Counted from the first letter of the stretch, positions 2,104-48,129 are shown. The stretch: 64,000 nt of DNA from a bacterium (GCA_030427365.1 JAUHWW010000001.1:31963-95962); one strand, 5' to 3'. The notes: generated by a model not told the origin, from the sequence alone. Made by a program: numbers and translations.

Positions 2104-2658
2104 ATGCGTAATAAAAATCCCCAAAAACAAAAATTACTAATAGGCCTGATTGTACTCCTTATTTTAGGAGCTCTAGCTGCTTTGGTCTACATATCAAATC
2201 GAGATAACAATTCTGCAAATGAGCAAAGCGACGGCAACGTCCAGTCACCGCAGGATATGATCAACTTAGAGCCCCCGACTTCACAAGAACAAGAAGCTGG
2301 GGACGCAATAAAACCTCAGCTTCCCGATGCAGATAGTGAGCCTCAAAACGGAAATTCTGGCGACAGAACAGTCGATCTCGTCATAACCGACGCAAGCCAG
2401 TATGACGATACAATTGAGGTGCGCTCGTTTGTTGCAAACTATATTGAGGATGGAACGTGTACTATGACTTTCAGTCTTGGAAACGAAACTATTACTAGAG
2501 AAACCGTCGCAAAAGCAGATGCATCAACAACTCTTTGTTTAACACTAAACGTGCCTAGAGCTGATTTCCCAAAGAGCGGTAATTGGAAATTAAAAGTCTC
2601 GTACGACGATGGCAAGAGTGCATCAGGTAGCGCAGAGACAACAGTGGTAATAGAATAA
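2104..2658 (+). CDS. membrane-anchored/secreted hypothetical protein with acidic low-complexity linker
   Basis: N-terminal hydrophobic helix LLIGLIVLLILGALAALVYI, D/E/Q-rich linker, ATGA-type overlap with next gene (TAATG at 2656-2660). Confidence 0.45.
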   Translation: MRNKNPQKQKLLIGLIVLLILGALAALVYISNRDNNSANEQSDGNVQSPQDMINLEPPTSQEQEAGDAIKPQLPDADSEPQNGNSGDRTVDLVITDASQYDDTIEVRSFVANYIEDGTCTMTFSLGNETITRETVAKADASTTLCLTLNVPRADFPKSGNWKLKVSYDDGKSASGSAETTVVIE

Positions 2659-4664
2659 TGAACGTAAAAGTTTTTAGAGCAAAATCTGTAAAAATAACGT
2701 TAGCTCTATTACTTTCTGTATTGCTATGCAGTACGTTTCTATTTCAAATGATAGGTGGTCGTTCCGTTAGTGGACTTTCGGGATCAGACTTCGATGCCGG
2801 CAATATAATAAGTGATTCTATATTCTACAATTCTTCGTCTATGTCTACTTCACAGATACAGAGTTTTTTGGACTCTAAAGTACCTGTATGCGACACCAAT
2901 GGTACACAACCCTACGGAGGCACAACCCGTGCAGCATATGGCGCATCAAGGGGCTACCCTGCTCCATATACGTGCCTAAAAGACTACTCACAAAGCGTAC
3001 CCTCTATTACCAATAGTGGAAGTGACCTGTGCGGCGGGAGCATAAGCGGGGGCACAAAATCTGCAGCTCAAATTATCTATGACGTTTCGAAAGCGTGTGG
3101 CATAAATCCTCAGACACTAATTGTTCTATTGCAGAAAGAGCAGTCACTTGTAACGGATGACTGGCCGTGGTCAATACAGTACCGCTCAGCAACAGGATAC
3201 GGCTGTCCCGACACTGCTCCATGTGACAGTGAATACTATGGGTTCTTTAATCAAGTCTACCAAGCAGCCAAGGCTTTCCGTCGCTACGAAGCTAATCCTG
3301 ATAGCTATAACTACAAAGCAGACCGCAATAATTATATCTACTATCATCCTAGTTTGGCTGCTTGCGGAGGTACAAATGTTTTCATTGATAACCAAGCGAC
3401 TGCAAATCTTTATATATATACCCCGTACCAACCAAACACAGCTGCATTAAATAACCTCTATGGAACTGGTGATGGGTGTAGCGCGTATGGCAATCGTAAT
3501 TTTTGGCGTATGTTTAATGATTGGTTTGGATCAACACAATTAAATTACGCAGCTGAAATGATTGAAAGTAAACTCTATACCGATCCAGCTAGAACAAACG
3601 AAACCTCAGGCCTTACGGGATATCCTGCAGGGACGAAACTATATGCCAGAATTACTGCAAAAAATGTTGGCAGTAGAACATGGCTAAAAAGCACAACGAG
3701 GGTTGGTACAAGAAGTCCATTTAATCATGCGAGTAGGTTTTACGATCCCTCGACATGGTTGAGTGCAGCTAGGCCAGCAACCATGAGCGAAAATTCTGTC
3801 CAGCCAGGGGAAGAAGCGACTTTTGATTTTACTTTGCTACTCGACGAAGACAATGGTCAGTATACTGACCAGTTCCAGCTTATCGTAGAGGGTCAGGCGT
3901 GGATGGAATATCGTTCAAGGTTCGATATCACAGCTACATTAGATACTCCTTATCGAGCAAAGCTTGTTTCTAGACGTGTTTATTTAGACCAAGCTCAAAC
4001 AGCAAAAGTTGGAAATACCATTCGACCAGGTGAAAAGCTTTACTGGGAAGTGAAGTATAAAAATACAGGATCAGTTACTTGGACAAACGTTAGCACAAAA
4101 ATAGGTACCGTTGATCCATTGAATCGATCTAGTAGTTTCTTCGACCCAGCGACTTGGGAGTCTGCAAGCCGTCCAACACTCATGGAAGAGTCATCTGTCG
4201 CCACGGGTCAAATTGGTACATTTTTGTATACCTCTGTCTCACCCGGATCTGATGGCTTCTTTACCGAGTCTTTAGGTCTGGTGGTTGAGTCGATGGCTTG
4301 GATAAGCAACTCTCATTTCTCTGATGTCATAAGATCCTCAAGTACTATTGACAGGCTATTTGGCGGAGAGAGACTGCTGCCGGGTACTGAGCTCCGTTCT
4401 AGTGGTCACCGACTTATAATGCAAGGTGATGGAAACCTGGTTGTCTACAATCCAGAAGGGCAAGCAACTTGGAACTCTGGAACGTCTGGTGGTAATCGAT
4501 TCATTATGCAAGGTGATGGAAACCTAGTTATGTACAATTCGAGTAATAAGGCGATTTGGTCAAGTGGGACCAAAGGTGGTAATCGATTCATTATGCAAGG
4601 TGATGGAAACCTGGTTATGTACAATTCGAGTAATAAGGCGATTTGGAGTTCAGGAGCTAATTGA
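2658..4664 (+). CDS. secreted protein with C-terminal bulb-type (B-/GNA-like) mannose-binding lectin domain and two internal ~85-aa repeats
   Basis: Signal/TM at N-terminus; three consecutive QxDxNxVxY motifs (MQGDGNLVVY, MQGDGNLVMY x2) in last ~95 aa = one beta-prism II lectin domain; internal repeat TRVGTRSPFNHASRFYDPSTWLSAARPATMSENSV / TKIGTVDPLNRSSSFFDPATWESASRPTLMEESSV. Confidence 0.7.
   Translation: MNVKVFRAKSVKITLALLLSVLLCSTFLFQMIGGRSVSGLSGSDFDAGNIISDSIFYNSSSMSTSQIQSFLDSKVPVCDTNGTQPYGGTTRAAYGASRGYPAPYTCLKDYSQSVPSITNSGSDLCGGSISGGTKSAAQIIYDVSKACGINPQTLIVLLQKEQSLVTDDWPWSIQYRSATGYGCPDTAPCDSEYYGFFNQVYQAAKAFRRYEANPDSYNYKADRNNYIYYHPSLAACGGTNVFIDNQATANLYIYTPYQPNTAALNNLYGTGDGCSAYGNRNFWRMFNDWFGSTQLNYAAEMIESKLYTDPARTNETSGLTGYPAGTKLYARITAKNVGSRTWLKSTTRVGTRSPFNHASRFYDPSTWLSAARPATMSENSVQPGEEATFDFTLLLDEDNGQYTDQFQLIVEGQAWMEYRSRFDITATLDTPYRAKLVSRRVYLDQAQTAKVGNTIRPGEKLYWEVKYKNTGSVTWTNVSTKIGTVDPLNRSSSFFDPATWESASRPTLMEESSVATGQIGTFLYTSVSPGSDGFFTESLGLVVESMAWISNSHFSDVIRSSSTIDRLFGGERLLPGTELRSSGHRLIMQGDGNLVVYNPEGQATWNSGTSGGNRFIMQGDGNLVMYNSSNKAIWSSGTKGGNRFIMQGDGNLVMYNSSNKAIWSSGAN
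4405..4664 (+). repeat. 81-bp-period in-frame tandem repeat (3 copies, last two near-identical at nucleotide level) encoding the three lectin sub-sites
   Basis: ggtaatcgattcattatgcaaggtgatggaaacct[a/g]gttatgtacaattcgagtaataaggcgatttgg occurs at ~4495 and ~4576; diverged copy at ~4414. Confidence 0.7.
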
Positions 4665-4714: not shown

Positions 4715-5884
4715 ATGGCTGTTAATAATATTTTCTTTGAAGGTCTTGGCTTGGTAGAGGGGCACTTTAGCGGAATTGGTCAATATATCCTAGGAATCCT
4801 AAAAGGTGTAGATGAAGAGATTGATAAGAGAATGCTCATGGGTGAACAAACCCCAAAGGTGTTCGTTATCATTCCATATGACACGTACCCCCGCTTTCAG
4901 GAGTACAATTTTAAACACATACGAGCAAAAAAGCTCCCTTTGAAGTTTAAGTACGTGGCGGCTTTGTGGCACAGAGGAATGATGCCTCCGCTGGATTTAT
5001 TTTTTGGAAAAGGTCATTATATCTTTACTCGTTTTGTAACTATGCCCGTCTTGTTTAGTAAGTCTTCAGTTGTTATATACGATCTCTCTTTTGAACTATA
5101 CGCAGACTTTGCTGATGCTAAAAATGCTAAGTTCTTATCCAAAGGTACTCGAAAATCAATTAAGTCAGTCGATAATGTATTCACAATTTCACAAAACTCC
5201 AAACGCGAAATTGCAGATTTCTACGGTTTTCCAAAATCAAAAATCTATGTCGCGACACCTGCTGCCGATCAGGCCTACTTTTACCGACGTAGTGATAAAG
5301 AAATAGAAAATATAAAGAGAAAGTACGGCATAGGGAAAAACTATATCCTTGCTCTTTCAAATCTAGAGCCCAGAAAAAACCTTGAGACACTTGTTGACGC
5401 ATACTGTCAGCTCCCCGCAAATATAAGAAATACGTACAGCCTTCTTTTGGTGGGAGTAAGTGGATGGAGAACTGATGCCCTTTTTTCAAAAATCAAAGAT
5501 CTTGTTGCAGAAGGCTACGATATTATCCGGCCGAATGAATACGTCTCTGACATTGATAAGCCAGCAATTATTTCTGGCACTTCAGTCCTTGTATATCCTA
5601 GCCATTATGAGGGGTTTGGCATGCCGCCCCTTGAAGCACTTGCATGTGGAGTACCTGTAATTACGGCTGATAATTCTTCCTTGCCAGAAGTAGTGGGAGA
5701 CGCAGGCACCATGCTGGACTGTAATGATGTTGATGGCTTCACAAGACAGATTGCAAAACACCTGGAAAATTCCGAGAAGACAAAAAAGGAATTCATGAAA
5801 ACCGGACCAATACAAGCAGAGAAATTTGATTGGCAAAAAAGTGCAAACGTCTACTTATCGGCTGTGCTCGGAGATAGAGAATGA
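4715..5884 (+). CDS. glycosyltransferase family 4 (GT-B, retaining)
   Basis: C-terminal EGFGMPPLEALACGVPVI motif (E-x7-E GT4 signature). Confidence 0.8.
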   Translation: MAVNNIFFEGLGLVEGHFSGIGQYILGILKGVDEEIDKRMLMGEQTPKVFVIIPYDTYPRFQEYNFKHIRAKKLPLKFKYVAALWHRGMMPPLDLFFGKGHYIFTRFVTMPVLFSKSSVVIYDLSFELYADFADAKNAKFLSKGTRKSIKSVDNVFTISQNSKREIADFYGFPKSKIYVATPAADQAYFYRRSDKEIENIKRKYGIGKNYILALSNLEPRKNLETLVDAYCQLPANIRNTYSLLLVGVSGWRTDALFSKIKDLVAEGYDIIRPNEYVSDIDKPAIISGTSVLVYPSHYEGFGMPPLEALACGVPVITADNSSLPEVVGDAGTMLDCNDVDGFTRQIAKHLENSEKTKKEFMKTGPIQAEKFDWQKSANVYLSAVLGDRE

Positions 5885-7170
5885 GAATCGGGATAGACCT
5901 TACAGTGTTACAAACCGCTCATCGTATGAGAGGCATAGGCTATACTCTCATAAACTTTCTTAACTACATGCCCGAAGCACAAAAAAAAGACCACACCTTT
6001 ATCTTCTACATAGACAGCGCTTCAGACGACCCACTTCAGTTAGTGAATCTAGATGGTTATAAGTATGAAAAACGATTAGTTTCGGGTACCTCAGTAAAAG
6101 TTGAAAATTCAAGAGATAAGGGTAAGGTACATTTTATAAAAACAGGCGTCCGTAATCAGTTTGTCGTACTTCGAGATTCAGTATTCGGTGATTCAAGAAT
6201 TACTAATCTTGAAGACGTTGACTACTTCATACAGTTTGATCAGAACCAACCAGTTCCAAATAAACGAAAGGTGCGCTCTACCCTTATACTGTATGACCTA
6301 ATACCTTTTGTTATGGAGTCTGACTATTTATGGGGCTACAAAACTGCTCGTGCACATGGTAGGAGCAGGAAGAACGCAGCTAGACTAGCTGCAAAAAGAC
6401 TTACGTATTATTGGACAACCAAACTTAACTGCAAGAATGCCGATTCTCTTATTGCGATATCGGAGCATACTAAAAAAGACTTTATAAAATTCTTATCAGT
6501 TCCTAAAGAGAAAATTAGTGTTGTTCTGTTGGGGGTGGAAAATGATAAGGCTAAAAGCAGTAAGAAACCTTCATTTAGTCGATTTATTGAAACGAGTTGG
6601 GGCCCAATGCCTCGCAAAACTAAATTACCTGAAAAATTCATTCTGTATTTGGGGGGTGGTGATCAGCGCAGGAAACTTGTCGACCTATTAGCTGCATTTA
6701 ACAGCCTTCGTGCGCAAGAAAAAGAAATTTCACTAGTAATGGCGGGTGATATCATGAGAGGTCCAGGCACAACACCTATCAAGGAGCATAGGGACTACTA
6801 CAAATCAGTATCCTATATTGATGATATCTATTTTCTTGGCTTTGTATCTGATGATGAGAGACAGTATCTCTATGAAAATGCTCTAGCCTGTGTATACCCA
6901 AGTGTCTATGAGGGGTTTGGGCTGCCCGTACTAGAGGCTATGAAACACAGTTGTCCTGTTATCACCTATAATAATTCTTCGATTCCTGAAGTTGGGGGTG
7001 ATGCAGCTCTCTATGCATCAGACCAAAAAACGATTAGAAAGCAGCTCGTGAAACTAATTGATGACAATAGCTTCAGAAAAGAAATGGTTGAGAAAAGCGA
7101 AAAACAAGCTCAAAAGTTTGGCTGGGAGCAAACGGCCACATCTATTTTAGAAGAAATTCTTAAGTCTTAG
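5881..7170 (+). CDS. glycosyltransferase family 4
   Basis: EGFGLPVLEAMKHSCPVIT motif; ATGA overlap with upstream GT4. Confidence 0.8.
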   Translation: MRIGIDLTVLQTAHRMRGIGYTLINFLNYMPEAQKKDHTFIFYIDSASDDPLQLVNLDGYKYEKRLVSGTSVKVENSRDKGKVHFIKTGVRNQFVVLRDSVFGDSRITNLEDVDYFIQFDQNQPVPNKRKVRSTLILYDLIPFVMESDYLWGYKTARAHGRSRKNAARLAAKRLTYYWTTKLNCKNADSLIAISEHTKKDFIKFLSVPKEKISVVLLGVENDKAKSSKKPSFSRFIETSWGPMPRKTKLPEKFILYLGGGDQRRKLVDLLAAFNSLRAQEKEISLVMAGDIMRGPGTTPIKEHRDYYKSVSYIDDIYFLGFVSDDERQYLYENALACVYPSVYEGFGLPVLEAMKHSCPVITYNNSSIPEVGGDAALYASDQKTIRKQLVKLIDDNSFRKEMVEKSEKQAQKFGWEQTATSILEEILKS

Positions 7171-8031
7171 ATAAAGCTCTGCAAAAAATCTTCTACTTAG
7201 ATATTTGATACTATGCTGTTTGCTGGAAAGATCTGCGTAGTTGTTTGAGATCGCAACAAGCTCTGAGTGCTGCTTTTCAGTAATATGCACATACTCTTCA
7301 AGCTTGACTAATATTGATTTCTTTTCTTGTTTAAATGCTTTTGCGTGATGCTCTCGGATCGAGCGGTGGGCTATCTTTGCTGCCTCTTCAGCAAAACCAC
7401 TCAACATGGCCTGTTTTTCAGAATTAAGCAAGTAATACTCATTGAGTCCGTCAAAAATTGCCATACTGTAGCCAGACTTTTCAAGAAACTTATTCCACCC
7501 ATCCTTGCTGTTTCGATGATTCGCTTCTATGCAAATTACTCTTGGATGAAATAGCTTCCAATCATTACTTCTTACTACAGCACCTTCGGCGCCTTCTACA
7601 TCTATCTTTATAAAGTCTACCCTAGTATTTTTTGCATATTTAGCAAAAATCTCTTTTAAGGTAATCGATTTTACCCTATAGTCTAGGAAATCAATTTTTG
7701 TACCTGTTTCTTTTATTGACTCTGTGTCTGTGGTTGATAACCCATCATGATTAGGGTACTCTCTGAATTCTACTGTCCCCGGAGTGTCAGAGACAACTGC
7801 CTGTATATTTATATCTCTAGTTCGTTTTTTGTCGAATTTCTTTATTAGCCTTTCAATAGGTTCTACATTGACTCCTGACCATCCTTTCTTATAAAAATAC
7901 TTTGTTACTGAATGATACTCTTCGTGATTTGCTCCTACATCAATATAGAAGCCTTTTTTCACATTTCTAAGTAAAGCAGCTAAAACAATGTCTTCATGAT
8001 ACTGAGCGTAAACTACGTCTAAGTTGTCCAT
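7147..8031 (-). CDS. FkbM-family SAM-dependent methyltransferase
   Basis: YIDVGANHEEY and FIKIDVEGAEGAV motifs typical of Methyltransf_21/FkbM. Confidence 0.7.
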   Translation of the reverse strand: MDNLDVVYAQYHEDIVLAALLRNVKKGFYIDVGANHEEYHSVTKYFYKKGWSGVNVEPIERLIKKFDKKRTRDINIQAVVSDTPGTVEFREYPNHDGLSTTDTESIKETGTKIDFLDYRVKSITLKEIFAKYAKNTRVDFIKIDVEGAEGAVVRSNDWKLFHPRVICIEANHRNSKDGWNKFLEKSGYSMAIFDGLNEYYLLNSEKQAMLSGFAEEAAKIAHRSIREHHAKAFKQEKKSILVKLEEYVHITEKQHSELVAISNNYADLSSKQHSIKYLSRRFFAELYLRLKNFF

Positions 8032-8043
8032 GCGGCGTAAAAT

Positions 8044-9030
8044 CTAGCCTTCCTTTTTGTGTTTATTTACTAGTGAAGCTAATAGTGCAACATCTTCTTC
8101 AGGAGACCTAAATAGCGAATCGTCACTGTGACATAAAGACGTCTCTATGCGCAAATCTTTATCTTCATTTGAGAATGATGCAACTATTAACCCATCGCCA
8201 CTGAACGATTCGGCAATGGTATGAGAGGATACTATGTGTGCGCCGTTTTCCCTTAAGAATGTCAAACATTCGCTATGTGTGTTCGGATTCCTCGAGAAAT
8301 AATAATGATGCGTAGAAACAAATACAAACCTAATTTTTTGTTGTTTGATAGATTTTATTGACCCTTTTAGTGCATCGAGTTCAACACCCTGAACATCCAT
8401 GTGTAAAATACCTACTTTTTTGATCGAATTCTCTGAAACAATGGAATCAACGCTTCTTACTTCAACTGTAACTTCCTCGGCTGGATTCGAGTCGAGGGGT
8501 AAACTAATCTTGACACCATTTTGACTCCCGGCAGCTGCGCTTAAGAAAGTGGCATCCATGCCGTTCAATTCCGCATTTAACTCTCCGACGGCTCTATTTT
8601 TTGGGTCTGGTTCCGAGCAAAATGCTTTAGATCCTTTTATAGCTGAGAGAAACCACAGTGAATAATAGGACCAAAAGCTACCGAGCTCAATTATTGCTGA
8701 GCCTGCCTCTACCCTTTTCAGCACTTCATAAAAAAGTTTCTCTTCTTGGGGTTCATGATGACCTTTTAAGTCTTTGATTATTTCCGACATCCACTCACCA
8801 TGATATCCCCCCAAAGAAACCCTGAGCCCATTGTGCATTATTTGTACTTTTCCTTTGGTTGTATCCTCAATTAATCCTGCATGTTCAACTTTTGGAATAT
8901 AATCAGTGTCTCTGCATGAAACAGTCATCTGCTTGCGCTGATGCTCGTCTTTAGACCAAAGTCCCGGGGCATCAATTAGATATTGAACGGGGTCGGGCAT
9001 TTGATTATGTTTGGTCTTTTTTCTTAACAT
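8044..9030 (-). CDS. FkbM-like methyltransferase (divergent)
   Basis: IELGSFWSYYS and LHMDVQGVELDAL positionally equivalent to FkbM motifs; 1-nt overlap with ABC ATPase gene. Confidence 0.5.
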   Translation of the reverse strand: MLRKKTKHNQMPDPVQYLIDAPGLWSKDEHQRKQMTVSCRDTDYIPKVEHAGLIEDTTKGKVQIMHNGLRVSLGGYHGEWMSEIIKDLKGHHEPQEEKLFYEVLKRVEAGSAIIELGSFWSYYSLWFLSAIKGSKAFCSEPDPKNRAVGELNAELNGMDATFLSAAAGSQNGVKISLPLDSNPAEEVTVEVRSVDSIVSENSIKKVGILHMDVQGVELDALKGSIKSIKQQKIRFVFVSTHHYYFSRNPNTHSECLTFLRENGAHIVSSHTIAESFSGDGLIVASFSNEDKDLRIETSLCHSDDSLFRSPEEDVALLASLVNKHKKEG

Positions 9031-10223
9031 TACTTAGCTCCTTTTAGGGTCACGCTGCACTTCACTTCAGGATTTGTAATCGATGGTACGCGCCTTTTTC
9101 CTTTCATCAGAAGTTGCACTGCATCCTCTTGCCAATCAAAAACCGTTACCCCGTCACCACCTAAAACTGCCAGGTCTACTGTATGTATGCCGTTATTCAG
9201 GTAGTTCGGCATGTCAAAGCTAACAAGATACCTTTCTTTTTCATTAAGACCAATTGTTTCAAGCTCTAATAATTTTGAATTGGAGGCTATAATAGACAAT
9301 CCTTCACCGTTCTTTATCGAAAATCCATAGACAATGTCCTGAATCTTTCTATGTGCTTTAATTTGAAATTTAATACTGATACCTGTTTTTGATGCTTTAG
9401 CCTGAATGTCTTCGATTGTCGCCTCCATTGTGCCCCACCGACTGTCACTATTTCTAGTTGAGAGTGATTCAGTTTCCGTAAATAGCTGCGTGTATTTCTT
9501 AGCGGCAGTCCTCGCATCGCCATACTCTGCTACCTTACCGTCGTCTATTAGAACTGCCTTGTCACAATACTCTCTAACTGCATCCATGTCATGGCTGACA
9601 AAAACGACCGTCTTCTTGTTTTTCTTCAGTGTCTTGAAATAATCAAAGCATTTCCGTTGAAAATCCGCATCACCAACGGCCAGCACTTCGTCTAGCAGCA
9701 GTATGTCTGAGTCGGCGAGGATGGTTGCAACAGAAAATGCCAGGCGTACCTGCATGCCCGAGCTGTAGTTCTTGAGCTTTTGACCCATGAACTTTTCGAG
9801 TTCTGCGAACTCAACAATAGCATCGTACTTTTCATCGACTTGTTTTTCAGTGAAGCCCAGCAGTGCGCCATTGAGATAGACGTTGTCACGACCACTAAGC
9901 TCTGGGTTAAACCCAACACCAAGTTCAATAAATGGTACGATTTTCCCTGTGGTTTCAATTGAACCTTTTGTAGGTTGGTAAATACCAGCAAGCATCTTGA
10001 GCAGCGTACTTTTTCCGCTTCCGTTGCGGCCAACAATGCCAAAGAATTCGCCCTTTTTTACCTCAAAACTAACCCCATGTAAGGCTTTCTGCACTTCGAA
10101 CTCGCGGTATTTTTTAAGCTTCGCCATGTTTGTAAACAAGGTCTTAATTGATCCGGCTTTTGACGTCGGCAAACGGAATGATTTGTGGACGTTCTTTACT
10201 GAAATGACTGTTTGATCATCCAT
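9030..10223 (-). CDS. polysaccharide ABC exporter ATP-binding protein (Wzt/TagH-type) with ~150-aa C-terminal extension (putative glycan-binding domain)
   Basis: Walker A GRNGSGKST, signature YSSGMQVRLAF, Walker B ILLLDE; C-terminal beta-rich extension as in Wzt. Confidence 0.85.
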   Translation of the reverse strand: MDDQTVISVKNVHKSFRLPTSKAGSIKTLFTNMAKLKKYREFEVQKALHGVSFEVKKGEFFGIVGRNGSGKSTLLKMLAGIYQPTKGSIETTGKIVPFIELGVGFNPELSGRDNVYLNGALLGFTEKQVDEKYDAIVEFAELEKFMGQKLKNYSSGMQVRLAFSVATILADSDILLLDEVLAVGDADFQRKCFDYFKTLKKNKKTVVFVSHDMDAVREYCDKAVLIDDGKVAEYGDARTAAKKYTQLFTETESLSTRNSDSRWGTMEATIEDIQAKASKTGISIKFQIKAHRKIQDIVYGFSIKNGEGLSIIASNSKLLELETIGLNEKERYLVSFDMPNYLNNGIHTVDLAVLGGDGVTVFDWQEDAVQLLMKGKRRVPSITNPEVKCSVTLKGAK

Positions 10224-10225
10224 AA

Positions 10226-11047
10226 CTATATCTCCTCCGCAAAGGATTTGGCTTTTTTGCTGAAGTACAGTGATGAGACAGCAAAAATCAGAATTGTTAA
10301 AACGACAGGGACAATCCTAATTGCTTCGTTACCGTCAAATACATCGGCAATTGTCGCGGTGTCTTTGGACACGAGTAAATAGCGCATATCCTGGATGATC
10401 TGAGCCATCGGATTGAGCATGAGAGTCTTCTGTGCCCAGAGCGGCGCAAACGTGATCGGGAAAAGGATCGGCGTGAGATAGAACAAGGCCTGCATAACAA
10501 CATCCCATATGTAATTAACATCGCGCAGCTTTACATACGCTGTCGCCAGAAAATAGCCGATGCCCAGGCTAAGCACGAAAAGCTGGAGAAATAAAAGTGG
10601 CAACACAAGCGTTTCAAGCGATATGCTTGCGCCTCCGATAGCTAGGAACACGGCAACCACAAAGAGGTTAAGCGCTAGGTTGATAAGCGCAGAGTATGTG
10701 ACCGCCTGGACAATGACTTTTTTAGGAAAGTTTAATTTACGGATCAAATCGCCTTTTCCAACTATTGACGTGACGCTGCCCCCCGTGACCTCAGAGAAAA
10801 ATGACCAGATAACGATACCAAGCAGCAGATACGCCCCTGAGTTTTCTACGCCGTAGTCAACCTTCACGATTTCAACAAAGACGATATAGAGAATACCGAA
10901 TAGAAATAGCGGCTTTAAAAGCGACCATAGATAACCGAGGGCTGATCCCTGATAACGGAGCTTAAAATCAGTCTTAACAAGCTGCCGCAGCAATATCAAA
11001 GAATAAGCTGGACTTGTTCTTTTAACACTGTTCATTTTCACTACCAA
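10226..11047 (-). CDS. ABC-2 type polysaccharide exporter permease (Wzm/TagG-type)
   Basis: 273 aa, 6 TM helices, immediately upstream of Wzt-like ATPase. Confidence 0.8.
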   Translation of the reverse strand: MVVKMNSVKRTSPAYSLILLRQLVKTDFKLRYQGSALGYLWSLLKPLFLFGILYIVFVEIVKVDYGVENSGAYLLLGIVIWSFFSEVTGGSVTSIVGKGDLIRKLNFPKKVIVQAVTYSALINLALNLFVVAVFLAIGGASISLETLVLPLLFLQLFVLSLGIGYFLATAYVKLRDVNYIWDVVMQALFYLTPILFPITFAPLWAQKTLMLNPMAQIIQDMRYLLVSKDTATIADVFDGNEAIRIVPVVLTILIFAVSSLYFSKKAKSFAEEI

Positions 11048-11097: not shown

Positions 11098-12045
11098 ATG
11101 AGAAAGACAGTTCTGGTCACAGGGGTTAATGGATTTGTTGGTCATCACGTTGCACGTTTGCTAGCAGAGCGTGGAGTTTCAGTTGTCGGTGTGGGCAATC
11201 AACCAGCACTAGAGGACGATCTGCAAGACGTTGTCGATACCTACACATCGTGTGACCTTACCGACCCTGACGAGGTTGCCTCAATCAATCTCAGCGATAT
11301 TGGCGCCATCATAAACCTAGCCGGATTCGCAAAAGTCGGTGATTCGCACGGTCAAGGAGACTTATACAACAAAGTAAACATTGGTGTCCACACCGTTCTG
11401 TACGATGAAGTGCTTCGCCAGAACATACGGCCACGAATCATCGCTGTCAGCACCGGCGCCGTCTACGATCCGAACCAGCCGCTACCAATTACCGAAGACT
11501 CTCAGCTTATCCCACGTGACAAGACGAACGAATACGTTGTTAGTAAACAAAAGATGGAGGAGGCGGTGCGCAGCTTTAGGGGCAAAGGTCTTGATGTGAT
11601 TATCGTGCGGCCTTTCAACCATTCAGGACCTGGCCAATTGCCAGGGTTTTTACTCCCTGATCTAGGCGAGCAAATCGCAGATGCATCACGAGACAACACA
11701 CCTCTACTCGTTGGTAACCTCGAAACAAAGCGTGATTATACTGACGTTCGAGATGTTGCGAGAGCCTACGTCGAACTAGCGCTGGCCGATTCCCTCAACT
11801 ATGACCTGTACAACATCTGCTCCGGTCAAAGCACGAAAGGCACCGATATCTTAGATTTGCTAAAAAAAGCCTTTGGTGCAAGCGATGTTGAGGTAAAAGT
11901 TGACCAATCACGCATCCGCCCAAATGATGTCATGGATATTTATGGTTCACGACAACGATTGACAGATGACACTGGCTGGGAACCGCAATTTAGCGTCGAG
12001 CAAATGGTGCGTGATTACGCTGCCTGGAAACAACTCAATGATTAA
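11098..12045 (+). CDS. NAD-dependent epimerase/dehydratase, likely GDP-4-keto-6-deoxy-D-mannose reductase (Rmd-like)
   Basis: VLVTGVNGFVGHHVARLL Rossmann motif, YVVSK catalytic YxxxK, RPFNHSGPGQ; adjacent gmd. Confidence 0.65.
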   Translation: MRKTVLVTGVNGFVGHHVARLLAERGVSVVGVGNQPALEDDLQDVVDTYTSCDLTDPDEVASINLSDIGAIINLAGFAKVGDSHGQGDLYNKVNIGVHTVLYDEVLRQNIRPRIIAVSTGAVYDPNQPLPITEDSQLIPRDKTNEYVVSKQKMEEAVRSFRGKGLDVIIVRPFNHSGPGQLPGFLLPDLGEQIADASRDNTPLLVGNLETKRDYTDVRDVARAYVELALADSLNYDLYNICSGQSTKGTDILDLLKKAFGASDVEVKVDQSRIRPNDVMDIYGSRQRLTDDTGWEPQFSVEQMVRDYAAWKQLND

Positions 12046-12581: not shown

Positions 12582-13040
12582 TTAGCGAATATTTTCTAAC
12601 CCAAGGCGTAGATAATGAGCGTACATTGCACCTACTCTTTTGGGTATTTCCTTCGTTATCATCATCTCACTAAAATGATCTTTATTCATCACAATATGTT
12701 CATCACCCGCAAGCTCAATCAAATAGCATGTTGAGATGTCTTGGCGATTTTTCTCTGTCTTGAATTTTCCAACATATTGACCAACTAATACTTTATTGGT
12801 TGTATCTACGTTTATTCCCAATTCATTCTTGGCAATTCTCTTTAATGTATCTTCGATGGTTTCGCCTTTGTACATTCTAAGTCCAGGTAGCGCCCAGACA
12901 TTTTTGTAAGGCTCGATTTTTCTTTTAAGAACAATGAAGCCGCTGTCTCCGTAGCGCAGCAACAAATCAAAAGTTGGAATAACCGACCACTCAAGTATTT
13001 CTTCGAAAACTTCTCGTGGTGCAAATTTTGGATGGCCCAT
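12582..13040 (-). CDS. NUDIX-family hydrolase, GDP-mannose mannosyl hydrolase-like
   Basis: GLRMYKGETIEDTLKRIAKNELGI NUDIX-like box; directly downstream of gmd as in gmd-gmm arrangements. Confidence 0.5.
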   Translation of the reverse strand: MGHPKFAPREVFEEILEWSVIPTFDLLLRYGDSGFIVLKRKIEPYKNVWALPGLRMYKGETIEDTLKRIAKNELGINVDTTNKVLVGQYVGKFKTEKNRQDISTCYLIELAGDEHIVMNKDHFSEMMITKEIPKRVGAMYAHYLRLGLENIR

Positions 13041-13046
13041 TAGAAG

Positions 13047-14081
13047 CTAAGCTTCGACTTCGAGGTCTTTTTCCACCATCAATTTGACGAGGCCTGGGAA
13101 GTCTACGTTACGTTTCCAGCCAAGTTCTTCTTCAGCAGCAGTCGGATTACCAAGAAGTAGATTAACTTCTGCGGGACGATAAAACTGAGGGTTCACCTTG
13201 ACTCTGACGATGCCGTTTTGATCAACGCCTTCTTCATCTTCTGCTTCACCGCGCCATGAAATGTCGAGACCAATTTCCTTAAATGCTAGTTCAACGAATT
13301 CGCGCACTGAGTGCGTTTCACCAGTCGCTAGAACGTAGTCTTTCGGTTTGTCTTGCTGCAGCATTCGCCACATTCCCTCGACATAGTCTCCTGCATAGCC
13401 CCAGTCACGCTTTGAGTCCATGTTGCCGAGCTCCATAAACTCTTGCTTACCGTGTTTGATGCGCGCGACGGTCTTCGTAATTTTGCGTGTGACAAATTCC
13501 GGTCCGCGCCTGTCACCCTCGTGGTTAAACAATATGCCGCTGAGCGCGAACATGCCGTAACTTTCACGGTAATTTTGCGTAATCCAATGTCCGTACAGCT
13601 TCGCGACACCGTATGGGCTGCGCGGATGAAAGGTTGACTCTTCGGTGTAACCAGTTTCTGGGCGGTTATAATCAAGTCCGCCAAACATTTCTGATGTCGA
13701 TGCCTGGTAAAATCGTGTTTTATCTGCGAGACCAGCAAGGCGAATCGCCTCCAAGACGTTCGTAACGCCTTTGCCGGTAACGTCTGCTGTTAGTAGCGGG
13801 TCTCTGAATGAATAGCCGACATGGCTGATTGCAGCAAGATTGTACACCTCATCTGGCTGAATTTCTTGCATTGCATGCGTCAACGAGGATAGGTCAAGCA
13901 AGTCTGCAAAAACGAGATTAACGTATGGAAACTCTTCGAGGAATTTCTGAGCGCGAGGGTGAGAAGCCTCCATCTGACCGCGCATGACGCCATAGACTTT
14001 GTAGCCCTTATCATTTAATAACTTGGCAAGATGTCCACCATCCTGTCCATTAACTCCGGTAATAAATGCTGTTTTACTCAT
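13047..14081 (-). CDS. gmd: GDP-mannose 4,6-dehydratase
   Basis: MSKTAFITGVNGQDGGHLAKLL, YQASTSEMFG, YGVAKLYGHW (YxxxK) - canonical Gmd. Confidence 0.9.
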   Translation of the reverse strand: MSKTAFITGVNGQDGGHLAKLLNDKGYKVYGVMRGQMEASHPRAQKFLEEFPYVNLVFADLLDLSSLTHAMQEIQPDEVYNLAAISHVGYSFRDPLLTADVTGKGVTNVLEAIRLAGLADKTRFYQASTSEMFGGLDYNRPETGYTEESTFHPRSPYGVAKLYGHWITQNYRESYGMFALSGILFNHEGDRRGPEFVTRKITKTVARIKHGKQEFMELGNMDSKRDWGYAGDYVEGMWRMLQQDKPKDYVLATGETHSVREFVELAFKEIGLDISWRGEAEDEEGVDQNGIVRVKVNPQFYRPAEVNLLLGNPTAAEEELGWKRNVDFPGLVKLMVEKDLEVEA

Positions 14082-15602: not shown

Positions 15603-16121
15603 ATGAAAAAGCTTAAGCATTTGCATCCGGTGAAGCGATGGAAGAAGTTAAGTGACACCAAACGACTGTTTGTTGCTCTATCTGTCTTCGTGATAGTTGT
15701 AGGTGGCTTGATTGGGTGGGCACAATACCAAGATTGGCGCAATGAACAGCTGTTGCGAAATATATCTGCTGATTTTGCACAGTTAGAGCGTGATCTGGAG
15801 GCAGAGCTAGGTATCGATGTTGAAAATAAGAGTGGCTGTTTCACGACCCAGGAGAAATTTGGTGACGGGAAAACTGGATGTTTTATGCGACTTGAGACAA
15901 CATCAGGAGAAAAAACAGATGCAAATAAACTCGACTTTATAGTTAGCTCAAATACAGTGTTTAAAGATAGATCTCAATTTAGAGAACAGGGTTTTTCAGC
16001 TACCTACGGAGGCTGGGAGTGTACATATGGTACGTGGATTTTTGGAGATGCTGTGCTTTATCTTGAGTGCCCTGTTCCAGTCAGAGCCGGAAACGCCAGC
16101 CTCGTCGATGAGTTGTTCTAG
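15603..16121 (+). CDS. hypothetical membrane-anchored protein
   Basis: N-terminal TM LFVALSVFVIVVGGLIGW; Cys-containing ectodomain. Confidence 0.4.
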   Translation: MKKLKHLHPVKRWKKLSDTKRLFVALSVFVIVVGGLIGWAQYQDWRNEQLLRNISADFAQLERDLEAELGIDVENKSGCFTTQEKFGDGKTGCFMRLETTSGEKTDANKLDFIVSSNTVFKDRSQFREQGFSATYGGWECTYGTWIFGDAVLYLECPVPVRAGNASLVDELF

Positions 16122-18912
16122 GCTGTTTATCAACCACCGGGCAATCAAATTTATCGTATAGTTTTTGCACAAGTGGCCTTAGGAATCGTGGCAGAGCTGT
16201 TTCAAGCTTGCGCAACACTTTGCAGATTTGTGGCTCAGGTTCTGGTGGTTCAGGTGGGTTAACAACTGGAATAACCTCATCGTCGCAAGAATCATCCACC
16301 CCGTCCTGATCTTCGTCAGTTCCGCTATTTTGAATGGTGCTGCATGAGTCTTCTTCATTTGGCACGCCATCTCCGTCAAAGTCGATGTCAGATGATGCAA
16401 TCATGATCGGCTCATATATTGTCACTTCTTGGCCAAACTTATCTGTTCCAGTAATAAAGACTGTATGCGTACCAGGTTCGATAGACTCAGGAACATCTAC
16501 TTCAAAGCGCAATACCCCATTTTCATCCACAGTGTAGGTGCCTAGGTCGGTTGGCGTTGACTCTATCCAAGACTCCGCCTCGCTGCCAGCAAGCATGTTA
16601 TCTAAAATAAAGACGAACCTTTGTCCCGTGCTTGCACCCAGGCTCAGCAGTGAACCAGCCTGAGGCACCACCAAAACACTGCTACCAAACTGACTATTCT
16701 CCGCGTTCACATAAGCCCTCGTGAGTTCGCCAAAAACGCCTTCCGGGGGCAATGGGATGTTTTGTGGTTGCGGCTCTGGCATTGCAGCCGTTAAGTCGTT
16801 AGTGGCCAGCTGAATTCGCTCTGCGTACTTCTCATGACCTGCTGGGCGAGGATGGTATGTCTCGTTTCCTGCACAACCAGCGCGCCATGAGCAAAGTCCA
16901 ACACCTAATATTCCTGGGTCTATATCATTCCCACCTGTAATGCCATTAAACAATAGTTCATCGTTATCTCTTGTGTCACACAACCTGCCACCAATTAAAA
17001 TATCTTCAACATCAACATAGAAAACGCCTGCTTCTAATGCCGCCGCCTCTATGATGTCATTCATATAAGAGACTCCCTGGGAGGCAGCGATGCGTTCCTG
17101 CAGGTTTAGCTGCACATTGAAATTGCACGTTTCAACTCCTTCAATTTCTGGATTCAGAAATTGTGGGTAACCATGAACATACACACGAGCTTCAGGTGCA
17201 CTTGTTTTAACCTTTTTAAATGACTCAACGAGTCGATGTTTTTGCTGGGCCATTCTCACTCCAAGGTAATCGTTACCGATAGAACCTTCGCTTGCCTGAT
17301 CACACGTGAGACTGTCTGGTCTCGGCCCAAGACACGACATAATAAAACCACCAAAATCCGCGTCATTTCCACCTATTGATATTGAAATCGCCTCGGGCTG
17401 TAAATTATTAACCTGCATTAAATCGATTTGTGATCTATAACCTGGTTGAAAGACTCCTAGAGTTGTTCCATCGATTGGTCGAAACTGATTATCTGTATCT
17501 TGAAATGCAGTTGCATCACCGTCACCTTCAAAAATTCCAGTGCCGCCAATAATATTGTGAATCTTGGCGCCGGAGCAGGCGACTGAATGGAATAAACCAT
17601 CGGCTGGTGGCGTAGATGGAGAGCTCAAATAGCCAAGGTCTACAGCCATCAAGTAAGGATAGCTGCGACGTGACAAATGACAGAGGTTGCGGCCAGCAAA
17701 AGTTTCTTTATCGCCCTGCTCGTCAGTTCCTGGCTCATACCACTCGCCGCCTTGCAGATCACCCTCACCAGACACAAAACTATCACCCATTGCCAAATAA
17801 CCTTGGGCTGTTGAGACATAATCTTCAGCCGTAATCGCAATTTCTCTCCATGTGTAGTCAGGCTGACCTGAAAACTTCTCGCCGAACGCAAAGGTGAGCG
17901 TATCACCCACTAAATCAAAATATGCGCGTCTGTATTGGCGGTTTGCATTACCCGAATATATGTCGATGATCCCATTGCTATGCGCGTACTCGAGCAGATT
18001 TCCTGACACCACGCAGCCTGGTGGATTCTCGGCGAATCCATGATTTTGCCAGCTACCAAACGCGTAGGTGCTCTCGCAACCCTCAGAATCAACAACTGAT
18101 AATGAGTTGCTGGTTTGGTGTGCTATGTAGCGTCCGTTTGAGCTAATTGAAAGAGAAATCGACCGATTACTGTTGCCAGGAACGTATTTCACAGGTGTCA
18201 TTTCTAGCGTATCGAGATCGATCTTATGTAGCCACACGCCCGCCTGCGCCACAACATAGCGTCCATTCGGTGAAAAAGCGTGGATCGTCACTTCATATTC
18301 GTTGCCATTACTGTACGTGAAAGGAATCCGAGCTGTTGATAACCCGTTAAACCGATGAATCACCTGGATATTGAGCTGCCTGCCGAGCGATGTGTCATCG
18401 CGGAAATTTGGGGCGTAGGCTAACCGGTACGTCGCACTAGATGGAAAGCGCCAATTCTTCAGCAAGACATGCGGGCCTGATGGTGCCGGGCTCGGTACTT
18501 CCGATCCGGTATCAAGCTCCATATAGTTGGTTAACCCGCCTGCTGGCGCGTACAACTTCTTGCTAGAGATATCCGGATTGTTGAAGTTACCTTGGGCGTT
18601 TCGATAAACGCACTGGTTCGCCTGGATCTGAATAGTGTCAAAACTGTTTAATAACTCGACTATTGAAAGGTTTGACCCTGTTGGGCCGCGAACAACTCGC
18701 TCCAAAACTGTTTGAAGTTCACAATTAGGGTCTATGGTAGTTAACGCTTCTGGGATTGAGCCGCGGTCTTCAAATGATAGTTGGCCGTCCCAGAGGTGAT
18801 TAGGAGCCTCTTGAGCTGTTGCCGTCTGGAAAGCTGGGGTAGATGAGAATAAAAGCGTGACAGACAATAAGACAGCAAACGCAAAACTCACAAAACGCCT
18901 CATAGGCTTCAC
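16081..18912 (-). CDS. secreted SGNH/GDSL-family hydrolase with beta-propeller-like N-terminal region and thrombospondin-type-3-like Ca-binding Asp repeats
   Basis: Signal peptide; SGNH blocks MGDSFVSGEG, SIGGNDADF, ETYHPRPAGH; C-terminal DFDGDGVPNEEDSCS...DEDQDGVDDSCDDE. Confidence 0.6.
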   Translation of the reverse strand: MKPMRRFVSFAFAVLLSVTLLFSSTPAFQTATAQEAPNHLWDGQLSFEDRGSIPEALTTIDPNCELQTVLERVVRGPTGSNLSIVELLNSFDTIQIQANQCVYRNAQGNFNNPDISSKKLYAPAGGLTNYMELDTGSEVPSPAPSGPHVLLKNWRFPSSATYRLAYAPNFRDDTSLGRQLNIQVIHRFNGLSTARIPFTYSNGNEYEVTIHAFSPNGRYVVAQAGVWLHKIDLDTLEMTPVKYVPGNSNRSISLSISSNGRYIAHQTSNSLSVVDSEGCESTYAFGSWQNHGFAENPPGCVVSGNLLEYAHSNGIIDIYSGNANRQYRRAYFDLVGDTLTFAFGEKFSGQPDYTWREIAITAEDYVSTAQGYLAMGDSFVSGEGDLQGGEWYEPGTDEQGDKETFAGRNLCHLSRRSYPYLMAVDLGYLSSPSTPPADGLFHSVACSGAKIHNIIGGTGIFEGDGDATAFQDTDNQFRPIDGTTLGVFQPGYRSQIDLMQVNNLQPEAISISIGGNDADFGGFIMSCLGPRPDSLTCDQASEGSIGNDYLGVRMAQQKHRLVESFKKVKTSAPEARVYVHGYPQFLNPEIEGVETCNFNVQLNLQERIAASQGVSYMNDIIEAAALEAGVFYVDVEDILIGGRLCDTRDNDELLFNGITGGNDIDPGILGVGLCSWRAGCAGNETYHPRPAGHEKYAERIQLATNDLTAAMPEPQPQNIPLPPEGVFGELTRAYVNAENSQFGSSVLVVPQAGSLLSLGASTGQRFVFILDNMLAGSEAESWIESTPTDLGTYTVDENGVLRFEVDVPESIEPGTHTVFITGTDKFGQEVTIYEPIMIASSDIDFDGDGVPNEEDSCSTIQNSGTDEDQDGVDDSCDDEVIPVVNPPEPPEPEPQICKVLRKLETALPRFLRPLVQKLYDKFDCPVVDKQPRTTHRRGWRFRL

Positions 18913-23219: not shown

Positions 23220-24602
23220 GTGCAGGCAACTGGCGGAATATGGCAGGCAGTGCTCGGCGAGATCGAGCTAAGTGTAACGCGAGGACAATACGTCACGTGG
23301 TTTAAAAACACCGAACTGCTCGAGTATTCTCCAGAAACAGCCGTTATTGGCGTGCCGAATGTTTTTATCAAGCAGCAGCTTGAGCGTCGCTACCAAGACA
23401 CCCTACTCGACCTACTTGACAAGAACGGCGTGCGACCAAAGACGATGGAGTTTAAGATCTATAGTTCACCGTCGACGCGTTCAAGTAAGCGACGAAATAC
23501 AGATGCAGTTGAGCTGACGCCTGATCTAGACGCAACCTCCCCTCGAAAAAAGAAGCTCGAAACCAGCTCAGGCGTCGCACATAAATACCGCCAAGGATTA
23601 AACAAGAAGTACACTTTTGACTCCTTTATTGTCGGTGGTGCCAACGACTTAGCGTACGCCGCCTGTCAGGCAGTTGCCGCTTCACCGGGAGAAAAATACA
23701 ACCCATTGTTTGTCTATGGCGGCGTAGGTATTGGAAAAACGCACCTTATCCAGGCAGTTGGCAATGAAATATTAACTCAAAACCCAAGTGCTCACGTCGT
23801 CTATGTATCAACTGAGCAATTTGTGCAGGAGTTTTTGGACGCAATCCGCTTTAAAAAGAACACTGAATTCGCCGGTCACTATCGCAGCGCCGACGTGCTG
23901 ATTATTGATGATATTCAGTTTATTACCGGCAAAGAAAAGACGCAGGAAGAATTTTTTCATACCTTTAATGCGCTTCACCAGGCGAACAAGCAAATCATTA
24001 TCAGCAGTGACAAACCGCCGCACGAAATCGCCACACTGGAAGAACGTCTCAAAAGCCGCTTTGCAATGGGCATGACCGTTGATATGCGCACGCCAGAGTT
24101 TGAGACCAGGGCAGCGATTGTGCAGGCCAAGGCTGAGGCGCAGCGGCTGAATTTACCAGCCGATGTCGTAGAGTTCCTCGCAAATCATGTGAAGACAAAC
24201 ATTCGTGAACTTGAAGGCGCCCTGAACCAGCTGGTTGCCTTTTGCGAGATGAAGGGGCTCGATCCTGACTTGGCTGTCGCTAAAGTGGTGCTGGCTGGAA
24301 ACTCAACTCGGGCAAAGCACATTACCCCGAAAAAGCTTGTCGAAACCGTCGCTGACTACTACTCCGTTCCGATGGTCGACATCATGAGCCCAAAGCGCGA
24401 TAAGGAAATTGTCGTGCCGCGGCAAATTGCGATGTACCTTATGCGTGAAGAACTACACCTTAGTTTTCCGAAGATCGCTCATGAGTGCGGCCGTAAAGAC
24501 CACACGACCGCCATCCATTCGGTAGATAAAATCAGCAAGGAGTTGGCCATCAACCCAATGCTGCGTCAGCAAATCACTGACATTAAGGAGCGCATAAAAT
24601 GA
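23220..24602 (+). CDS. dnaA: chromosomal replication initiator protein DnaA
   Basis: GTG start; AAA+ Walker A GGVGIGKTHL, Walker B LIIDDIQF, sensor/helix-turn-helix C-terminus. Confidence 0.95.
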   Translation: MQATGGIWQAVLGEIELSVTRGQYVTWFKNTELLEYSPETAVIGVPNVFIKQQLERRYQDTLLDLLDKNGVRPKTMEFKIYSSPSTRSSKRRNTDAVELTPDLDATSPRKKKLETSSGVAHKYRQGLNKKYTFDSFIVGGANDLAYAACQAVAASPGEKYNPLFVYGGVGIGKTHLIQAVGNEILTQNPSAHVVYVSTEQFVQEFLDAIRFKKNTEFAGHYRSADVLIIDDIQFITGKEKTQEEFFHTFNALHQANKQIIISSDKPPHEIATLEERLKSRFAMGMTVDMRTPEFETRAAIVQAKAEAQRLNLPADVVEFLANHVKTNIRELEGALNQLVAFCEMKGLDPDLAVAKVVLAGNSTRAKHITPKKLVETVADYYSVPMVDIMSPKRDKEIVVPRQIAMYLMREELHLSFPKIAHECGRKDHTTAIHSVDKISKELAINPMLRQQITDIKERIK

Positions 24603-48037: not shown

Positions 48038-48129
48038 TGGCGGAGAGGATGGGATTCGAACCCACGAAACGAGTCGCCCCGCTTACACGCTTTCCAAGCG
48101 TGCTCCTTCAACCACTCGGACACCTCTCC
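48038..48129 (-). tRNA. tRNA-Ser (anticodon GGA), long variable arm, genomically encoded CCA
   Basis: Revcomp GGAGAGGUGUCCGAGUGGUUGAAGGAGCACGCUUGGAAAGCGUG...GGGUUCGAAUCCCAUCCUCUCCGCCA; anticodon loop UUGGAAA. Confidence 0.85.

Follow-up and report, generated by a model that had tools for sequence, protein, structure and literature searches.

The bulb-type lectins of monocots, such as GNA and gastrodianin, are stand-alone proteins with the beta-prism II fold, in which about 105 amino acids are arranged in three pseudo-repeats, each carrying a QxDxNxVxY motif and a core Trp. A lectin with the same construction was recognized at the C-terminus of a 668-aa protein encoded by a Saccharibacteria gene in a 64,000-nucleotide stretch of bacterial DNA (GCA_030427365.1, JAUHWW010000001.1:31963-95962; hereafter the window, with positions counted from its first letter), where the gene lies in a locus for glycan synthesis and export. 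In comparison with the plant lectins, the pseudo-repeat spacing of the window lectin is 29 instead of about 31-32 amino acids, two of its units are near identical, and it is fused to the end of a predicted bacterial exoprotein of 560 aa.

Among secreted wall and polysaccharide enzymes, the autolysins anchored to wall glycopolymers (LytA, which binds choline, and SLH and CWB2 proteins) and the glycosidases encoded in polysaccharide-synthesis operons (PslG, BcsZ, AlgL) have to be considered. The window protein appears to share their logic, namely a catalytic head combined with a module for the own wall polymer and a gene situated in the biosynthetic locus of the polymer; its head and its lectin-type anchor nevertheless differ from all of these, and both its activity and its ligand are putative.

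Of the bacterial proteins with a bulb-type domain, LlpA bacteriocins (putidacin L1, pyocin L1) consist of two MMBL domains plus a C-terminal extension and contain no other domains (PMC6240691), and the L-type pyocins act on BamA of diderms (PMC13463100). The window protein shares the MMBL domain with them, but LlpA kills diderms via BamA, whereas here a single MMBL domain stands at the end of a multidomain, predicted secreted protein of a monoderm. The D-rhamnan ligand of pyocin L1 is derived from GDP-mannose and exported by Wzm/Wzt (PMC3916391), a chemistry which matches the window locus. In albusin B of Ruminococcus albus (N-terminal lectin and peptidase M15) and in MSL of M. smegmatis (LysM and B-lectin; PDB 4oit) the lectin is joined to a peptidoglycan-directed module in a bacterium of Gram-positive type (PMC6240691). 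The lectin of the window protein is C-terminal in contrast, and no match to M15, VanY or LysM was found, so that it does not represent an albusin B-type fusion. A bulb lectin is also part of a secreted actinobacterial protein recognizing wall glycopolymers, UmbA4 of the Streptomyces umbrella toxin (PMC13274773), which differs in having a trypsin-like domain and a beta-propeller beside the lectin and in being part of a toxin particle, where the teichuronic-acid contacts were mapped to the propeller and not to the bulb lectin.

The lectin tail and the adjacent glycan locus

The 668-aa reading frame called in the first-pass annotation, from ATG to stop, was borne out, and an identical protein is predicted on the ENA metagenome contig ERZ23499406 scaffold_96, to which the window corresponds. 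It has a three-part layout: an N-terminal domain (the head, aa 40-296), two NBR1-type Ig domains and the C-terminal lectin (aa 565-668). All three QxDxNxVxY motifs are intact (aa 589, 618 and 647), with a spacing of 29 and 29 aa. The Pfam B_lectin profile (PF01453) gave 30.1 bits (E=7.3e-7), just under the gathering score of 32.4, and close homologs clear this threshold with 36.5-70 bits; in spite of the sub-threshold score the lectin identity is secure because of the matches to PDB sequences and the fold. With phmmer the SCAfet lectin (1dlp, 3.4e-19), pyocin L1 and putidacin L1 (about 3e-18), gastrodianin (1xd5, 4.2e-17; aa 565-667 against residues 2-108 of the 112-residue chain), the M. smegmatis LysM-lectin (4oit, 2.5e-12) and the snowdrop, daffodil and garlic lectins (1e-11 to 1e-14) were matched, and the alignments cover aa 565-668 against nearly whole chains of about 110 residues. 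In the AlphaFold2 (AF2) model of aa 296-668 (mean pLDDT 90.3) twelve short strands occupy the last 105 aa. Foldseek superposed the last ~110 residues on gastrodianin (TMt 0.84 for 1xd6 and 1xd5_C/D, 0.82 for 1xd5_A; rmsd 1.9-2.0 A; 44% identity), as well as on the Marasmius mannose lectin and then on GNA-type lectins, LlpA, pyocin L1 and UmbA4 (9oee_A); over 1xd5, 1xd6 and 4tkc together the values are TMt 0.82-0.84 and rmsd 1.7-2.0 A.

Judged by sequence and model, the C-terminus can be regarded with security as a complete bulb-type lectin with three canonical sugar-site motifs. The first-pass annotation had made this assignment depend on a B_lectin match and on preserved motif spacing; the match was found, though below the gathering score, and the spacing proved constant. 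Its remark that bulb lectins are rare in bacteria fails for this lineage, where 74 of the 120 best homologs carry at least two lectin motifs, often as two tandem lectin domains. Taken alone, the domain is a new but ordinary representative of a fold that is well known.

The presence of the lectin tail coincides with a particular gene neighbourhood. Of the loci, 78 were complete and extended far enough downstream; in these a GT4a ortholog begins at most 600 nt from the stop codon in 8/8 lectin-bearing genes versus 0/70 genes without lectin motifs (Fisher p=4e-11, phylogeny not corrected for). Seven further lectin-bearing homologs, 41-58% identical over their full length, all share the order small gene, lectin protein, GT4, GT4, methyltransferase/kinase/further GT4, Wzt(Wzt_C), Wzm, SDR, Gmd. 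When arranged by head similarity, the genes with a lectin do not fall into a single clade: 53/88 tips descend from their common ancestor in a neighbour-joining (NJ) tree which has no support values and whose sampling is biased to the sequences closest to the query. Furthermore, the head domain closest to that of the window (L003, 86% identity) belongs to a protein without a lectin and without such neighbours. On these sequence comparisons the tail module appears to be matched to the adjacent, GDP-mannose-derived glycan pathway.

The glycan-locus setting described earlier for the gene was confirmed: two co-directional GT4 genes stand directly downstream, and two FkbM-family methyltransferases, Wzt with Wzt_C, Wzm, SDR, Gmd and a Wzy_C-like gene are found in the same locus. 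Since Gmd passes the equivalog cut-off, the neighbouring pathway starts from GDP-mannose. The arrangement corresponds to that of glycans which leave the cell through an ABC transporter and whose capped end is recognised by Wzt_C; the polymannan of E. coli O8/O9a and the D-rhamnan CPA of P. aeruginosa are examples. L083, a lectin-bearing relative, has a protein kinase in place of the methyltransferases, which resembles WbdD-type terminators. Gaps of at most 50 nt separate the lectin gene and the GT4 genes and no terminator was found between them, so that they appear to be co-transcribed; a scan of the surroundings of the lectin gene gave neither a noteworthy sigma-70-like promoter nor a noteworthy terminator.

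Bulb lectins bind mannose. That of pyocin L1 binds D-rhamnan, a 6-deoxy-D-mannose polymer (PMC3916391), and the ligand of the window lectin would likewise be mannose or 6-deoxy-mannose residues. As the lectin tail is tied to a locus starting from GDP-mannose, binding to the own polymer is favoured; the earlier suggestion of a self polysaccharide as ligand gained support from this locus association.

The head domain and its partner gene

The chief interest of the locus probably lies in the combination of an uncharacterised, probably enzymatic head, a partner gene, an occurrence in glycopolymer loci of two phyla and a lectin tail matched to its locus. The protein begins with a K/R-rich stretch, a 17-residue hydrophobic core and VSG before LSGS, at which aligned position the homologs have ASA before LSGS; on inspection these are features of a Sec signal peptide, and the protein is likely to be secreted. 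The first Ig domain is recognized by Pfam N_BRCA1_IG (PF16158; 29.6 bits against a gathering score of 28, over aa 323-411), the two are 38% identical (E=6e-31, aa 299-430 against 434-564) and both are all-beta in the AF2 model. The two ~85-aa repeats that the first-pass annotation placed here are in reality these two domains of ~130 aa, and where it had seen only repeats in the N-terminal ~550 aa, the first ~300 aa form the conserved, defining domain of a large family. Its account of gene, lectin and glycan-locus setting therefore stood, its repeat period (see below) and the size of the upstream repeats did not.

A search with the full-length protein returned more than 7,800 significant matches, all of them "hypothetical protein" and mostly from Candidatus Saccharibacteria. 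When aa 36-300 were compared exhaustively by phmmer with 1.84 billion cluster representatives (50%-identity clusters), 3,887 were matched at E<=1e-3 and 2,199 at E<=1e-30, mostly from Saccharibacteria and also from Actinobacteria, among them Microbacteriaceae. Among the GTDB species genomes, those of the cultured Actinobacteria Agromyces, Leifsonia, Plantibacter, Geodermatophilus and Demequina encode the domain at 52-58% identity, in proteins of ~760 aa whose tail consists of other repeats without a Pfam match. From protein to protein the head stays constant and the tail changes: the window gene has two Ig domains and one lectin, and other members have one Ig domain followed by two lectins in tandem, or between three and five Ig domains and no lectin. 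The head (aa 36-300) had no match in Pfam, NCBIfam, PHROGs or PDB sequences; extending the Pfam search to 15 members at E<=10, and searching the PDB with a profile, yielded chance matches only (e.g. a 27-residue PP2A stretch). With tblastn the head had no match in the phage and plasmid collections, and nothing indicates a mobile or phage lysin. The actinobacterial homologs are named "hypothetical protein" or, by UniRef, "Hemagglutinin", and hemagglutinin-like in some genomes. No experimental basis for this name was found in the literature, which gave only genome announcements and one Clavibacter secretome listing, whose entry CMM_0431 ("hemagglutinin") was not confirmed as a member of the family; the name appears to be an unsupported legacy annotation. 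In the literature on Saccharibacteria lectins and genetics the family is not mentioned.

The AF2 model of the head (pLDDT 92.6, pTM 0.90) predicts a disulfide-rich alpha/beta domain with six or seven conserved cysteines. Its weak Foldseek matches, in both the PDB and the BFVD library, are almost all wall hydrolases of the lysozyme superfamily (probability up to 0.93): the GH73 enzymes LytB, SagB, AtlE, Atl and Acp, goose-type lysozyme, SLT and Slt35, and on the phage side phiKZ gp144, the phi6 lysin, beta-N-acetylglucosaminidases and tail lysins. The GH73/GH23 hydrolases are the only recurring fold neighbours, and with them the head shares a conserved Glu at the C-terminal end of a helix; it differs in the lack of a profile match, in TM-scores of at most 0.30 and in its cysteines. 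To our knowledge the C-P-D motif of the head has not been described for the GH73/GH23 families.

The Glu in question, E161, lies in the K160-E161-Q162 motif which closes the modelled helix aa 151-162, being its second-last residue. It is invariant in 54/54 aligned sequences and is Glu in 310/311 single-copy homologs, the remaining one having Asp; D185 of the C-P-D motif is invariant in the family alignments. Three proteins (P0241, P0242, P0243) contain 3-4 tandem copies of the head domain, and in each of them exactly one copy keeps K160, E161, P184-D185, Y210, Y254-T255 and G278-N279. In the other copies E161 is changed to Q/K/N together with D185 to G/A/Q, with further losses elsewhere in the set (E161 is replaced in 7/11 copies), and all copies retain the cysteines and the Trp/Pro/Asn scaffold. 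This coordinated decay in redundant copies with a preserved scaffold is the reason for reading the residue set as an active site. From sequence conservation and the model we consider it fairly probable that the head is a divergent lysozyme-like glycosidase with E161 as acid and D185 as likely partner.

Upstream of the lectin gene stands a small gene, whose stop overlaps the lectin-gene start by one base (TAATG). Its product consists of a membrane anchor at the N-terminus, a ~70-aa linker that is acidic and rich in Pro and Gln, and a two-Cys, beta-sandwich-like domain of ~90 aa, with only weak Pfam hints (DUF1573, MG2). Its homolog in Leifsonia, a lipoprotein encoded upstream of the head-domain gene, is 30% identical (E=8e-8). 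With a hidden Markov model a partner homolog was detected directly upstream of the head-domain gene in 69/76 loci, including 12/20 actinobacterial ones. Partner and head-domain gene are a conserved two-gene cassette; the partner could anchor the putative hydrolase or inhibit it. In Leifsonia the same pair lies beside Wzt(Wzt_C)/Wzm, and in many loci of the two phyla the cassette has Wzt, Wzm, GT4, Gmd or SDR at a distance of no more than 6 kb.

Two further observations concern the head family. In the NJ tree all 20 actinobacterial head domains (loci L050-L080) form one clade nested among Saccharibacteria, which hints, at the level of sequence, at a transfer between the epibiont phylum and the host phylum. 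In P0193, a Leifsonia-type protein of 799 aa from a JGI metagenome, the second half of the head domain is replaced by a GH25 muramidase segment (83 bits, aa 132-271); as a single metagenomic sequence and possible assembly chimera, it was not used as evidence of domain displacement.

A proposed role and the competing explanations

We propose, with a probability of about one half, that the protein is a secreted wall-glycan hydrolase tethered by its lectin to the cell's own glycopolymer, a model combining sequence, structure prediction and analogy. The head would cleave a glycan of the cell wall, which may be peptidoglycan or the glycopolymer of the neighbouring locus, with Glu161 as the catalytic acid and Asp185 as the partner carboxylate; the two Ig domains would serve as spacer or accessory glycan binders, and the lectin with its three sites would tether the enzyme multivalently to mannose or 6-deoxy-mannose residues. 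The likeliest ligand would be the own glycopolymer, whose precursor would come from Gmd plus SDR, and which would be built by the GT4 pair, capped by the FkbM methyltransferases and exported by Wzm/Wzt(Wzt_C). The translationally coupled, membrane-anchored upstream protein would be an obligatory partner, as anchor or inhibitor. A broader and more tentative possibility is that the head represents a previously unrecognised catalytic family, combining a lysozyme-like scaffold with the Glu of K-E-Q and the Asp of C-P-D, which together with the partner would form a two-gene cassette for an undescribed extracytoplasmic step on Wzm/Wzt-exported wall glycopolymers (trimming, release or transglycosylation onto the wall). 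Such a cassette would be common to Saccharibacteria and Actinobacteria, possibly by horizontal transfer, and the glycan-binding tail, be it a bulb lectin, an NBR1-Ig array or actinobacterial repeats, would be exchanged to suit the chemistry encoded in the local glycan locus.

Several points weigh against the tethered hydrolase. None of the Foldseek matches of the head is significant (best E 0.39 in the PDB, 0.06 in BFVD; TM-scores at most 0.30), and no sequence profile from Pfam, NCBIfam, PHROG or the PDB profile search links the head to any glycosidase. Most Saccharibacteria members and the actinobacterial members have no lectin, thus the lectin is accessory to the core function of the family, and its association with the locus may partly be co-inheritance, the tree having no support values. 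The motif alone is insufficient to predict the sugar specificity, and mannans of an actinobacterial host are equally compatible with the fold. Finally, we know of no ABC-transporter-dependent glycopolymer pathway that needs a hydrolase.

It is possible, though rather less likely, that the protein is directed at the host, as a weapon or adhesin whose lectin recognises mannose-rich glycans of the actinobacterial host, with adherence or local wall digestion as the consequence. Saccharibacteria in culture live as obligate epibionts on Actinobacteria, and host recognition has been linked to proteins that bind glycans (PMC11623550, PMC10633639); bacteriocins composed of lectin and wall hydrolase exist (albusin B, PMC6240691), and UmbA4 includes a bulb lectin and targets actinobacterial wall polymers (PMC13274773; Foldseek 9oee). 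Variable C-terminal modules on a constant head resemble receptor-binding diversification as well, and the recent homogenisation of the lectin units described below indicates that this coding region is evolutionarily dynamic. The same head and partner are, however, conserved in free-living Actinobacteria within their own wall-glycopolymer loci, which argues for a housekeeping role in the envelope, and the lectin module strictly co-occurs with one type of self glycan locus, with whose GT4 genes it is apparently co-transcribed; no hallmarks of toxin or immunity were found.

The absence of a significant match of the head to any enzyme family would also fit a non-enzymatic surface adhesin or scaffold, in which the head is a glycan-binding module and the protein cross-links wall glycopolymers. 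The naming of actinobacterial homologs as hemagglutinin or hemagglutinin-like points in this direction, although it appears to be a legacy of annotation, and so do the 3-4 tandem heads of some proteins, an arrangement more typical of binding modules, and the binding-type folds of all other domains. We regard this as improbable: near-absolute conservation of Glu and Asp and their coordinated loss in all but one tandem copy are expected of a catalytic site, and the weak fold neighbours are almost exclusively hydrolases. The first-pass annotation had compared the lectin with the LlpA family, and pyocin L1 and putidacin L1 are indeed its best bacterial PDB matches, LLB_putidacin is its only NCBIfam match, and many family members have two tandem lectin domains. 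As membership the comparison was rejected, since the window protein has one MMBL domain, of 104/668 aa, behind an unrelated 560-aa body with a signal peptide, and NF033557 (LLB_putidacin) scored 92.8 bits against a cut-off of 275 over this single domain. Saccharibacteria and Actinobacteria are monoderm lineages, lacking the outer membrane whose BamA is the target of L-type pyocins, and a bacteriocin killing relatives through its MMBL domain is very improbable.

The tethered-hydrolase model touches a group of organisms, Saccharibacteria and other Patescibacteria, which are obligate epibionts with largely unknown envelope biology and host recognition, and for whose specificity lectins and wall glycopolymers currently rank as the foremost candidates. 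In the head-domain family, which is entirely "hypothetical" and comprises more than 3,800 clusters (50% identity), what is probably a new enzyme domain for wall glycans is combined with exchangeable tails that bind glycans, and the genes lie inside the glycopolymer loci of both the epibionts and the parasitised Actinobacteria. The strict pairing of bulb lectin and GDP-mannose-derived, ABC-exported locus gives a directly testable lectin-ligand prediction, and the culturable actinobacterial homologs (Leifsonia, Agromyces, Plantibacter) offer a tractable genetic system.

Repeat units, feature coordinates and further genes of the window

The repeat period of the lectin region had been given as 81 bp; both Tandem Repeats Finder (TRF; period 87, 1.8 copies, 98% matches) and the motif spacing set it at 87 bp (29 aa). 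The description of near-identical units, the last two differing in a single nucleotide, holds for a tract of 72 nt (4488-4559 against 4575-4646, 71 matching), where the only mismatch, A4526/G4613, is synonymous (CTA/CTG, Leu). Over the full 87 nt, units 2 and 3 show 13 differences due to the divergent last 15 nt, and unit 1 differs from both at 28-30/87 positions. The very recent duplication or conversion postulated earlier agrees with the 71/72 nt identity, by which units 2 and 3 were homogenised very recently.

In the clade with 29-aa spacing, compared on independently assembled data, units 1 and 2 of P0004, a JGI relative, are 89% identical and share a stretch of 58 nt in which a single base differs, and inter-unit identity is only 53-72% in P0002 and P0003. 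As the homogenised pair differs among lineages, the sequences indicate that gene conversion or unequal exchange between lectin subdomains is recurrent and affects different unit pairs. The Logan contig SRR24075715 (locus L002) is base-identical to the window over ~4.8 kb minus exactly one 87-bp unit, its protein (P0001, 639 aa) retaining two lectin motifs. Since a two-subdomain prism would be incomplete and an assembly with k=31 would collapse the 72-nt repeat, we lean towards a k-mer assembly collapse, the alternative being real copy-number variation.

Table 1. Positions of the lectin gene, its parts and its neighbours in the window (the stop codon is included in the coordinates of the 668-aa frame)
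Feature	Position	Strand	Basis
Divergent polytopic membrane protein, 381 aa	860-2005	-	open reading frame (ORF) call
Partner gene, 184 aa, membrane anchor	2104-2658	+	ORF call
668-aa lectin ORF	2658-4664	+	ORF call
Predicted Sec signal peptide, aa 1-39, putative cleavage after VSG before LSGS	2658-2774	+	sequence inspection
Conserved N-terminal domain, aa 40-296, candidate lysozyme-like glycosidase	2775-3545	+	AF2, family search
Codon Glu161 (K-E-Q motif), candidate catalytic acid	3138-3140	+	conservation, helix position
Codon Asp185 (C-P-D motif), candidate second carboxylate	3210-3212	+	invariant in alignments; lost with E161 in degenerate copies
NBR1-type Ig-like domain 1, aa 299-430	3552-3947	+	Pfam N_BRCA1_IG, AF2 all-beta
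NBR1-type Ig-like domain 2, aa 434-564	3957-4349	+	internal identity to domain 1, AF2 all-beta
Bulb-type lectin (beta-prism II, B_lectin), aa 565-668	4350-4661	+	phmmer, Foldseek, Pfam
Sugar-site motif I, QGDGNLVVY, aa 589	4422-4448	+	pattern match
Sugar-site motif II, QGDGNLVMY, aa 618	4509-4535	+	pattern match
Sugar-site motif III, QGDGNLVMY, aa 647	4596-4622	+	pattern match
87-bp tandem duplication	4488-4646	+	TRF
Two GT4 genes (4715-5884 and 5881-7170)	4715-7170	+	Pfam Glycos_transf_1, 95 and 82 bits
Two FkbM-family methyltransferases, candidate chain terminators	7147-9030	-	Pfam/NCBIfam
Wzt (ABC ATPase with Wzt_C glycan-binding domain) and Wzm (ABC-2 permease)	9030-11047	-	Pfam/NCBIfam
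SDR epimerase/reductase	11098-12045	+	Pfam
Nudix-like gene	12582-13040	-	Pfam
Gmd, GDP-mannose 4,6-dehydratase	13047-14081	-	420.2 bits against the TIGR01472 equivalog cut-off of 415

The 381-aa membrane protein had no Pfam match; by its position it is the counterpart of the PMT_2/GT-C-type gene upstream in relatives, where L083 and L084 have PMT_2-like genes of 1069 aa, or of 688 + 388 aa. Upstream of the lectin-bearing loci L083, L084 and L086-L089 there are also a GT2, a large GT-C/PMT_2- or GtrA-like membrane protein, methyltransferases and genes of GDP-mannose supply (ManC, PMM, mannose-6-P isomerase), which suggests an additional extracytoplasmic glycosylation step with a polyprenol-linked sugar. 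Adjoining the glycan locus of the window, a 943-aa protein (16081-18912, - strand) with only GDSL-lipase/acylhydrolase matches could be a glycan O-acyl esterase or transferase.

Further from the locus, a 661-aa protein with Phage_lysozyme2 and VanY domains (27802-29787, - strand) lies near a TraG/VirB4-like P-loop ATPase (33676-35592, - strand), and large ORFs without Pfam match are found at 30348-33632, 37526-39301 and 40092-42122; the region with hydrolase and ATPase looks like a type IV secretion cluster of Patescibacteria with a wall hydrolase. A DnaA gene with all three Pfam domains is located at 23220-24602 (+ strand), close to which the chromosomal origin region is probably situated. 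The window also contains a single tRNA-Ser(GGA) (48038-48129, - strand) and a GroEL gene (55571-57208, - strand), both of an ordinary housekeeping kind.

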